A stretch of 64,000 nucleotides of DNA from IMG/VR virus record IMGVR_UViG_3300036929_000011, positions 1 through 64,000 of that record, one strand, 5' to 3'. Each line of letters opens with the position of its first letter. Position 1 is the first letter of the stretch. Of this stretch, positions 26,301 to 28,404 are shown piece after piece. The position numbers were made by a program, and so were the translations under genes. This DNA comes from a virus (taxonomy: Duplodnaviria; Caudoviricetes). Below the pieces are notes generated by a model, which did not search any database, had not been told where the DNA came from, and saw only the letters and a list, made by a program, of their open reading frames with translations.

Positions 26301-27296
26301 TCACCAACCTTGAGGGCAAAGGCCCTTCTCGGCCTTCTCAATCAGCCACTTGATCTGTTCTGACGTCAGTTCCAGGAACCCACTGACCTTCGCTTCCTCG
26401 GCGTCCTCCAAATGTCCGTTGACCCAGCCGAGCTTGGCTCGCTTGGCCTGCTCTTTCTGCTCGGCCTCGGGAAGGCTTGTGTCCGCGGTCCCAATCTGCG
26501 CGGCGATAAGGGCTTGGGTCAGCCTCTGGACTTCGGTCATGCCGGCCTTGGGCACGGCGGCGGGCTTGGCGCCGGAGGTGCGGGGGGCGTGGGCGCCAGG
26601 ATGGCCCTGGTCGTCGTCATCCGGCGGGGCGTCCTCGTCGGTGAAGATGTCAGAGCACGCGGTTGCGTTTCTGACCGCTTTGACGTAGGCGCGCTTCTGT
26701 GCAATTGAGATAATCGTGTTGTGGAGATCCATGACCTTGTCCGGGCTGATTGCCCCGGTCTGATCGAGAATTTTCTTATCCTCATCCCCGTATTTGGCGC
26801 CGCATCCTCCCTTCTTGGCAAAGCACAGCCACCCCCCGCCGAATTCTTCCTTGCCCTTGATGATCGTCGCCTTGCCGCAAGCTGGGCATAGGCGTGCCGA
26901 GGTTTGTACCAGGTACTTCTGTTCCCGGCTATTAGCAGATCCAATGGCTTCGCCGACTAATTCCCCAGTTACGGAATTAAAAAGTTTGCAGCGTACTTCC
27001 CGAAGAATGAAGTCGGGACGCTCGTCTCTCGTTTCAACAATGTACTCGGGGCGAAGCCTGAACACCTGGCAGAGAACTTCAGCGCCCGGCTGCAAAAGCG
27101 CCTTCTTGGGCTTCTTTCCAACCTGAGTCGTCCCGGGAATCTCTCCGAAGTCGGTGCCCTCCTTCATCACCTTTTGCATCACCTCGACGACGGCCATCCG
27201 CATTGCGACCGCGCGATTGACGTCGAGGCCGTAGTCTGGCCTAACCATGGTCCCTTGCTCTGCCACTACAACTGCCGTCTTGGCTTGGTCACTCAT
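26301..27296 (-). CDS. Putative ssDNA-annealing recombinase with Zn-ribbon insertion
   Basis: DFGEIPGT..ALLQPGAEVLC..ANSRE..NTIISIAQKRAYVKAV..SDIFTD; adjacent to the exonuclease. Confidence 0.6.
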   Translation of the reverse strand: MSDQAKTAVVVAEQGTMVRPDYGLDVNRAVAMRMAVVEVMQKVMKEGTDFGEIPGTTQVGKKPKKALLQPGAEVLCQVFRLRPEYIVETRDERPDFILREVRCKLFNSVTGELVGEAIGSANSREQKYLVQTSARLCPACGKATIIKGKEEFGGGWLCFAKKGGCGAKYGDEDKKILDQTGAISPDKVMDLHNTIISIAQKRAYVKAVRNATACSDIFTDEDAPPDDDDQGHPGAHAPRTSGAKPAAVPKAGMTEVQRLTQALIAAQIGTADTSLPEAEQKEQAKRAKLGWVNGHLEDAEEAKVSGFLELTSEQIKWLIEKAEKGLCPQGW

Positions 27297-27757
27297 CTGG
27301 AATCTCCTTCTCGTTTGATTCTAGCTTTCCGATACGCTATCTCAGCATCTTCCTTTCGCACGAAGACGCCGAGGCGTTGCCTGGACCTTCTTCCTCCAAT
27401 TACAGCGGCCCACTTGCTTCCGCTTCGGAATACACCTCTGACACCACTTGTATTGTTCTTCTGGATCCTAGTGTTGAACGCCTGCTGACTCGGGGTAGCC
27501 CAGCGACAATTTCCTAGCTCGTAATTACCGCCGTTATCGATCCGATCAATAGTCTTCCCGGTCGGACGTTCCCCCATATCTTCCAGGAAGTTCTCAAAAG
27601 ATTTCCAGCGTTCACAAACAGTTATTCCACGAGATCCGTACTTCTTGAACATATCCCCCTTGGTCGCTCGTGTGCGCGACAACATAGAGCACCATGTGCG
27701 ATAGGTTGGAGATTGTCCCCCGCGGTGTGCATGGTCATGCTTGATTGACCGTTCCAT
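27293..27757 (-). CDS. C-terminal HNH+AP2 fragment starting at an ATG inside the element's TIR
   Basis: ATG = TIR positions 27757-27755, in frame; AGAGGG lies upstream. Confidence 0.55.
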   Translation of the reverse strand: MERSIKHDHAHRGGQSPTYRTWCSMLSRTRATKGDMFKKYGSRGITVCERWKSFENFLEDMGERPTGKTIDRIDNGGNYELGNCRWATPSQQAFNTRIQKNNTSGVRGVFRSGSKWAAVIGGRRSRQRLGVFVRKEDAEIAYRKARIKREGDSR

Positions 27758-28095
27758 GCTTATCCGGTTGACACCCTCTAGGTGTGAAAAAGCTTAGTTT
27801 TCGGACGTTGACTCTGCACGTGGGAAACCACCTCAAAAAGAGAATTGAAATCGCCCGGCGACACCGATCCGTCCGCTTCCAATCGCCCTAATCGCTTGCC
27901 TTTACTGGCAGAGCGTTCGGCCGTTCCATCGGTGTAAAACAGCGTAATAGCTCCACCTTTTGCTAGCTGTTGTGCCTCTGCGACACCTGTCATCATGGCT
28001 TCGATCTTTGGCGCTATTGTGTGTATAACCATCGGAGCAGTTTTCATTGTTCAAGTCCTATCGAATCAGTGGAGCGCGTGAACCGGATAAGCATG
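27755..28095. mobile_element. Non-autonomous transposable element (MITE/MIC-like), 341 bp
   Basis: Perfect 15-bp TIRs CATGCTTATCCGGTT (27755-27769) / AACCGGATAAGCATG (28081-28095); 8-bp TSD GACCGTTC at 27747-27754 and 28096-28103. Confidence 0.9.
27778..28047 (-). CDS. Passenger ORF of the element, 89 aa, unknown function
   Basis: Wholly inside the TIRs; AGGA SD; ATGA-coupled to the stop of the N-terminal HNH fragment. Confidence 0.5.
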   Translation of the reverse strand: MKTAPMVIHTIAPKIEAMMTGVAEAQQLAKGGAITLFYTDGTAERSASKGKRLGRLEADGSVSPGDFNSLFEVVSHVQSQRPKTKLFHT

Positions 28096-28404
28096 GACCG
28101 TTCTCCCACCTGATCACCTCGTAGGCATCCGCATGATGCCGATCTCCCACTGCGCAGATGCATGGCGTAAACTATTGAGTTTTCCCCACAAGAACATCGA
28201 CAAAAATACCGCGACACTCCGGAGGCGTTGCTCGCGCGCGCTATAACTTTCCACCGACCGAACGTCCTACCGACTAGGCTCCATCTCTTCGCGGCATCGG
28301 CCTTTCGGTCAAAGGTCATGTTCTGGTCTCCTCGGGAAGGTTGCCCGCCGCCCGGCAGTTACGGCAAGGTCCGGGCGGCGGTATCCGCGTTGGTGCGGCT
28401 GTCT

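Follow-up and report, generated by a model that had tools for sequence, protein, structure and literature searches.

A probable transposase-less IS1595-family cassette with one passenger gene in an HNH-like/AP2 gene of a tailed-phage genome

Results

Anatomy of the interrupted locus

This study concerns a 341-bp element at positions 27755-28095 of a 64,000-nt stretch of DNA, hereafter called the window, which is part of the 75.5-kb virus record IMGVR_UViG_3300036929_000011 (Caudoviricetes; estimated to be 92% complete). The element lies inside a gene for an HNH-like/AP2 protein, carries one small gene of its own, and is bordered by terminal inverted repeats (TIRs) and by the two copies of a target-site duplication (TSD). 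All relevant open reading frames (ORFs), namely the N-terminal fragment of the split gene, the cargo and the C-terminal fragment, are encoded on the minus strand. The features of the locus are as follows.

27755-28095: whole cassette, 341 bp, probably a non-autonomous mobile insertion cassette (MIC) of the insertion sequence (IS) family IS1595, judged by its ends and TSD and by the same ends on 94 TSD-flanked elements
27747-27754: first TSD copy, GACCGTTC; the intact allele in contig L213 has the 8-mer once, in the same place
28096-28103: second TSD copy, GACCGTTC, from the sequence and a repeat search
27755-27778: TIR at the far end from the cargo start, perfect over 15 bases and imperfect beyond them, its tip an outward ATG (27757-27755, minus strand); from the sequence, the repeat search and the family end consensus
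28072-28095: TIR proximal to the cargo start, containing an inward-reading ATG (28094-28092, minus strand); from the same three sources
28044-28094, minus strand: leader frame of 16 codons that begins at the ATG within the CATG tip and is continuous in frame with the N-terminal fragment; it ends in TGA (28046-28044)
28056-28059, minus strand: AGGA motif resembling a Shine-Dalgarno (SD) sequence, 8 nt 5' of the cargo ATG, read from the sequence; its use is presumed
27778-28047, minus strand: passenger gene for a small conserved protein of 89 aa, from homologue clusters, the ratio of nonsynonymous to synonymous substitution rates (dN/dS) and an AlphaFold2 (AF2) model
28044-28319, minus strand: N-terminal fragment, a 91-aa ORF of 75 native codons (a Cys-rich domain ending in ERS from the duplication) and 16 cassette codons, from homologue alignment and PHROG
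27293-27757, minus strand: C-terminal fragment, 154 aa from the TIR ATG, with an HNH-like core motif and an AP2-like tail, from PHROG and short natural relatives

The 15-mer CATGCTTATCCGGTT at 27755-27769 has its exact inverse at 28081-28095, and the two arms extend imperfectly beyond these perfect ends, with 21 of 24 positions matching from the tips in the repeat search. The 8-bp direct repeat abutting them is exact on both flanks. Within the element, the ATG of the cargo (28047-28045) is overlapped, as ATGA, by the TGA that ends the leader and the N-terminal fragment. An earlier reading of the letters alone, made with no database searches (the sequence-only reading), had described a transposase-less mini-transposon with these repeats, a real passenger gene, the ATGA overlap and an outward ATG in frame with the 154-aa piece; the sequence anatomy, the ORF listing, the homologue clusters and the dN/dS values bear out all four points. 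It had also called the element low in GC, which holds against the window (50.4% vs 62.7%; within the lowest 0.4% of its 341-bp windows), although the split gene is itself GC-poor (51-56%). Since the split gene and the insert are both GC-poor, together they form a foreign-looking island.

The element is present once in the 75.5-kb record, and no transposase was found either within it or anywhere else in that record. A promoter and terminator scan of the region revealed no sigma-70-type promoter and no intrinsic terminator inside the element, and an Rfam search of the region gave no match inside it. The element is not a miniature inverted-repeat transposable element (MITE), a class without coding capacity, as its 89-aa ORF is under purifying selection. 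It shows what defines a MIC, namely IS-type inverted repeats with a duplication, the lack of a transposase, a real passenger ORF and signs of mobility, here empty sites in contigs L210, L211, L213 and L214 and further copies in L128, L129 and L212.

The split gene and its empty sites

When the element and one repeat are removed, a 225-codon frame without stops is obtained. The restored 225-aa protein aligns end to end, straight through the junction, with intact homologues of 223-235 aa, which were found by a search with the C-terminal fragment and are 65-74% identical (68-75% in local alignments). The homologues share the junction motif ...CGCLRGEQ.(A/G)ERS(T/L)KH..AHRG..., and ERS is present in both fragments of the window because the duplication encodes it. 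The splitting of an HNH-like/AP2 gene, as first read from the letters, was thus confirmed.

The uninterrupted allele, which the sequence-only reading had suggested looking for, exists in relatives. In four syntenic metagenome contigs (L210, L211, L213 and L214), at 68-81% nucleotide identity, the gene is intact and is followed, with a 4-nt overlap, by the same 331/339-aa gene. In L213, the 8-mer GAACGGTC occurs singly at the exact insertion spot, where the two BLAST pieces share 9 nt. L213 and the other syntenic contigs represent the empty site in the same genomic setting.

Concerning the identity of the split gene, the PHROG family phrog_374 ('HNH endonuclease') was matched by both the N-terminal fragment (1.4e-15) and the C-terminal fragment (2.1e-48), and no HNH match was obtained in Pfam or NCBIfam. 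An arginine (R72) is invariant in 63 of 63 aligned relatives and, by our own reading of the motif, would occupy the position of the first HNH histidine. The description of the product as a canonical HNH endonuclease therefore went too far, as only PHROG names support the label, and the protein is at most a predicted nuclease. For the AP2 domain (Pfam PF00847), the window protein gave no match and its relative P0018 scored 32.3 bits (1.3e-07) against a cut-off of 33.3; several homologues have precomputed PF00847 matches. A PDB sequence search with the C-terminal fragment returned only noise, and the cultured phages of INPHARED contained only distant matches to the HNH gene. When the split gene was compared with intact alleles for dN/dS, dS was saturated, and the time since insertion is not readable from it.

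The HNH-like/AP2 gene (27293-28319) is a GC-poor island even without the insert (51-56% vs 62.7%). As it occupies the same locus in diverged relatives, it appears to be an older acquired gene. The neighbouring 331-aa gene (26301-27296, minus strand), which overlaps the stop of the split gene by 4 nt, matches only a PHROG family with no assigned function, phrog_10048 (1.9e-28), and is kept beside the HNH-like gene in all syntenic contigs.

The transposon family and its transposase

Viral contigs were searched by paired-end scans and by a scan with a 16-mer of the end, which yielded more than 118 stretches; a pairing script joined ends where their 8-bp flanks match, and the family counts given here refer to the matches listed. 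In this set, 94 elements of 213-2265 bp carry these ends and 8-bp duplications, the duplication being exact in 85 of the 94 and differing at one position in the rest. The 19 largest (1567-2265 bp) encode a transposase of about 349 aa, and the other 75 are without one. The search for an autonomous IS with the same ends, raised by the sequence-only reading, was thus successful.

The ~349-aa protein (e.g., L076:5619-6668) matches Pfam PF12762, DDE_Tnp_IS1595, at 8.2e-35, and the NCBIfam model NF033547, 'IS1595 family transposase', at 6.8e-56 and 189.5 bits (cut-off 75). Its N-terminus matches PF12760, Zn_ribbon_IS1595, at 1.8e-13 to 8e-13 in three autonomous copies. These features agree with the IS1595 family, for which 8-bp duplications are the norm and which has a zinc-finger N-terminus and a DDE_Tnp_IS1595 domain (PMC8101967). 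In the autonomous elements, the transposase gene is usually located downstream of one or more passenger genes. Passenger-carrying elements of IS1595 are a recognised class termed 'transporter IS' (tIS), as stated in PMC7986276 with reference to Siguier, Gagnevin and Chandler (2009). A MIC derived from IS1595 and carrying a passenger is therefore a known kind of element. MTnSag1/ISSag10 is one example of a passenger-carrying IS1595 element. The ends may fit the ISSod11-group consensus nnnGcnTATC.

Transposases with 73-88% identity, with CATGC... ends and 8-bp duplications, are present in metagenome-assembled genomes (MAGs) of Xanthobacteraceae, Pseudorhodoplanes, Rhodoplanes, Propylenella and other Alphaproteobacteria. 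Distant relatives, with transposases 40-49% identical, are plain multi-copy IS of about 1 kb in bacterial genomes, in which the GCTTATCC core is kept and the tips differ. On the MAG chromosomes L144-L204, from one Alphaproteobacteria MAG and from Bryobacterales MAGs, IS1595 relatives with 40-44% identity occur in many copies per genome, which looks like ordinary IS expansion.

Five other virus records with one to four cassettes each, two of them being complete (one with terminal repeats), encode no transposase. As neither these records nor that of the window contain one, movement would need a transposase that comes from elsewhere and acts in trans. Among the cultured phages of INPHARED, the element was absent, and its end sequence was not found in the published papers searched; our literature search brought up no report of IS1595 cassettes in phages.

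The passenger gene

The 89-aa cargo has homologues in seven clusters with 72-91% identity. Other copies of the cassette, which the sequence-only reading had proposed to seek, were found in L128, L129 and L212 (the last with 90% DNA identity), at other sites with other 8-bp flanks and the same TIRs. Between copies, the dN/dS of the cargo is 0.03-0.10, and this purifying selection marks the passenger as a genuine gene. The leader stop lies at -2 from the cargo start in L128 and at +4 in L129. In L128 (973-991), an extra CATG is seen at the left junction of the cassette copy (CATGCATGCTT...), which could have been left as a footprint or have arisen by slippage at the palindromic tip.

More remote relatives (33-51% identity) belong to a family of 70-113-aa proteins without a Pfam model. 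For three of them, five contigs (L215-L219) show ordinary rows of small genes with no terminal repeats, and the cassette thus appears to have captured an ordinary small gene.

The cargo itself had no match in Pfam, PHROG or NCBIfam. The AF2 model obtained with a deeper alignment has a predicted local distance difference test score (pLDDT) of 94 and a predicted template-modelling score (pTM) of 0.83, and shows a small beta-rich domain with two helices; the model from a shallow alignment (pLDDT 48) was not used. Foldseek searches against PDB and BFVD gave nothing at E <= 0.001, with all E-values above 0.1. The best structural neighbours are KTSC proteins (PF13619), and the similarity is weak: 7x8c_A has a Z-score of 5.1 with a root-mean-square deviation of 3.1 over 65 residues, and a viral KTSC cluster in the ESM Atlas has template-modelling scores of 0.54/0.53 to the cargo model. 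The modelled fold is at best weakly KTSC-like, and the KTSC domain itself has no assigned function. A relaxase/mobilisation lead from an ESM feature search (0.92; only 108-135 shared features) had no other support and was rejected.

Target sites and arrays

Read in cargo orientation, the target consensus is palindromic, with T at -2, RWWYRWWY in the duplication and A at +2 (about 90 sites, L002-L129). The target in the window, GAACGGTC (GACCGTTC on the plus strand), is a near-palindrome of this kind. Most retained insertions are at gene boundaries rather than within genes, and many duplications include or border the SD or start codon of the following gene. Within 33 nt downstream, an SD and ATG in the same orientation are present in 13 cases, compared with 2 divergent cases upstream. 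Counted by eye in cargo orientation, 12 duplications have ATG at their positions 3-5 and 4 have the mirror-image CAT, which suggests that retained insertions favour co-oriented gene starts. Sorting the sites by ORF spans into those inside and those between genes was too noisy in GC-rich DNA and was not used. The shells are tightly filled, with the cargo starting 24-90 nt from one end and stopping at a median distance of about 29 nt before the opposite end.

Three head-to-tail cassette pairs are spaced by exactly 8 bp (L006:5662-5699, L127:3003-3040 and L212:71-108), which looks like a second insertion reusing the duplicated target of the first and building small arrays. At L009:1153-2685, two cassettes have mismatched outer flanks, and GAAGGATT is found both after the right end of the first and before the left end of the second; this pattern suggests either nested events or recombination between cassettes through the ends that they have in common.

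Cargo diversity

In 90 elements, the first ORFs grouped into 73 sequence clusters; the seven members of one cluster are spurious ORFs that run antisense to the transposase gene. Among 67 cargos, Pfam recognised only 11 families, including N6/N4, MT-A70, C5 and other methyltransferases, NADAR, RNA ligase, MazG-like, crAss001_48 and a TnpB/Cas12f-like protein; PHROGs added further DNA methyltransferases, a PAPS reductase and many families with no assigned function. These cargos are typical phage accessory genes. At L048:1253-2408, a transposase-less shell of 1156 bp holds a 367-aa TnpB/Cas12f-like gene (Pfam OrfB_IS605 and Cas12f1-like_TNB), that is, the nuclease gene of a mobile element inside the ends of another element.

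Discussion

Origin of the insertion

Based on this evidence, the 341-bp segment is very probably a non-autonomous IS1595-family MIC that was moved in trans into the HNH-like/AP2 gene. In the mechanism that we propose, a cassette made of two ~24-bp TIRs, a ribosome-binding site and one passenger gene would have been derived from an IS1595-family IS. An IS1595-type DDE transposase from a host-borne or co-infecting autonomous copy would have recognised the ends and made the 8-bp staggered cut in the target, and the cassette would have been inserted into the GC-poor and presumably dispensable gene, at the boundary between its Cys-rich N-terminal domain and its core. As the cassette lacks both a promoter and a terminator and is oriented like the operon, the 89-aa gene would most likely be transcribed by read-through. 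Its translation may start from its own AGGA site and may be aided by coupling to ribosomes that end the N-terminal fragment at the ATGA.

Several points weigh against this account. Transposition is deduced from comparison, the supply of a transposase by another copy is presumed, and the host can only be guessed from the MAGs that contain close transposases. Coupling at the ATGA is deduced from the sequence. Across the family, a leader stop stands beside the cargo start in 36 of 70 elements, compared with 20.6 +/- 2.5 in shuffles, and this excess fades when independent left-end types are counted (16 of 44 vs about 29% expected). A degenerate pattern search of metagenome and viral contigs found no near-identical relative with a filled or an empty junction, and therefore the insertion cannot be dated. 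The fold match of the cargo is weak.

Fate of the C-terminal half

The 8-nt duplication and the terminal C of the cassette make 9 nt, and therefore, in the phase found here, the upstream half of the split gene also reads in frame into the leader, by way of which it stops at the cargo ATG. For the downstream half, one explanation is that the phase was a matter of luck and that the 154-aa piece is made by termination-reinitiation after the cargo and works as a short-form protein; we regard this as possible, although on balance unlikely. The outward ATG has the correct phase and lies 20 nt beyond the cargo stop, and neither half has stops or frameshifts. Natural relatives of 146-159 aa start where the C-terminal fragment starts; since these free-standing short forms begin at that point, the break falls at a natural domain boundary, and they would favour a working C-terminal half if it is translated. 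On the other hand, the ends and the duplication are still perfect, so the insertion may be recent, and intact halves then prove nothing. The SD match 5' of the outward ATG is limited to the three bases GGA, and in the predicted mRNA fold, in both the minimum free energy (MFE) and the centroid structure, the two TIRs pair and bury both terminal AUGs. Moreover, the nuclease activity of the family is itself only predicted, in view of the arginine that we place at the first HNH histidine. That the 154-aa half is made at all is, in our estimate, similarly doubtful.

A stronger proposal, put forward in the sequence-only reading, was that the element may be non-polar by design. On this view, the CATG tips would have been selected so that an interrupted gene restarts from the outward ATG, and the phage would keep a working nuclease half. 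The in-frame ATG, the short distance from the cargo stop, the 9-nt spacing that keeps both halves in frame at once, the natural short relatives and a CATG tip that is nearly invariant in the passenger-carrying clade are all consistent with it. The family as a whole, however, argues otherwise. Of the flanks in which a single frame is unambiguously open, 6 of 24 downstream and 7 of 26 upstream use the ATG frame, at or below the one-third expected by chance; frame 2 dominates at the flanks, an excess explained by the target consensus. Most retained insertions lie at gene boundaries, and transposon tips are conserved for cleavage regardless of any coding role. The surplus of leader stops beside cargo starts is reduced to 16 of 44 when each left-end type counts once. 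For the window itself, the poor SD match and the buried ATG count against this proposal as they do against reinitiation by luck, and a public gene caller picked an internal ATG that gives 130 aa (P0008). Design is therefore improbable.

Rejected origins

The sequence-only reading had also likened the element to IS4-family cassettes of the IS231/ISH8 type. The CATG tips and the transposase-less passenger do resemble MIC231, but every listed autonomous element with these ends has an IS1595-family transposase rather than DDE_Tnp_1, and all duplications are of 8 bp, the IS1595 norm (PMC8101967), instead of the 10-12 bp by which IS4/IS231 elements are recognised; we consider an IS4 origin highly improbable. 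The single copy in this genome would suit a repeat that arose by chance, or three ORFs in an ancestral order without mobility, but the likelihood of either is negligible, since they are refuted by the empty sites in syntenic relatives, by the same cassette at three other sites and by 94 family members with duplications. By our own arithmetic, a 15-bp inverted repeat directly flanked by an 8-bp direct repeat is expected about 4e-7 times per window, which, with the same ends and duplications recurring 94 times elsewhere, excludes chance.

Significance

For the window, the result is a clean dissection of one insertion, in which the family assignment is corrected and the idea of designed non-polarity is tempered. 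Of more interest is the picture at the family level, in which single genes are shuttled among environmental phages. The acquisition of single genes by phages has mostly been put down to illegitimate recombination so far. In the family described here, about 70 unrelated single-gene cargos in environmental phage genomes are enclosed by the same short pair of transposon ends, and these cargos are accompanied by empty sites, reused targets and tandem pairs, which together provide a concrete route for gene-by-gene exchange between phages and hosts. The flanks alone could serve to flag candidate accessory or counter-defence genes.

A further step would be to regard the IS1595 shells as a phage-adapted, gene-by-gene shuttle for 'morons', with ends shaped for life in operons: an SD and start codon behind the left end, stops beside the cargo start that end incoming frames, and CATG tips that give border ATGs so that neighbouring genes stay translated. 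We consider such adaptation rather unlikely. If it were true, the phage would keep the core half of a nuclease-like gene while gaining a KTSC-like gene.

Comparison with known systems

In common with the element of the window, the tIS elements of IS1595 have 8-bp duplications and short inverted repeats; the zinc ribbon and DDE_Tnp_IS1595 are present in the autonomous relatives, with passengers beside the transposase gene. The element of the window differs in that the transposase is wholly lost and a single 89-aa gene is kept, and its family differs in being found mainly on phage contigs, with about 70 unrelated single-gene cargos. MIC231 (an IS231 derivative of the Bacillus cereus group) and the qnrD 'mic' share the transposase-less state, IS ends, passengers, duplications and movement in trans, whereas they belong to the IS4 family, have longer duplications, reside on chromosomes or plasmids instead of phages and carry far fewer types of cargo.

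Among phages, MPME1 and MPME2 of mycobacteriophages are reportedly ultra-small mobile elements of less than 0.5 kb. They resemble the element of the window in this size, in short inverted repeats, in their location in phage genomes and in their presence or absence among relatives. They differ in that their one conserved ORF would be a transposase of their own and in that they are not known to leave a classical 8-bp duplication, whereas the family of the window has varied cargo and a known transposase that is encoded elsewhere. The family also resembles integron cassettes, which are single-gene units of about 0.3-1 kb that lack promoters, accumulate next to one another and shuffle accessory genes, although integrons rely on a tyrosine recombinase at attC/attI instead of DDE transposition with inverted repeats and duplications as inferred here.

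Finally, the split gene is comparable with the HNH-AP2 homing endonucleases of phages, given its phrog_374 match at 2e-48 and the AP2 match of its relative at 1.3e-07, just under the curated cut-off. It differs from them in lacking a Pfam or NCBIfam HNH match and in its invariant arginine, and both nuclease activity and homing are predictions for this gene.

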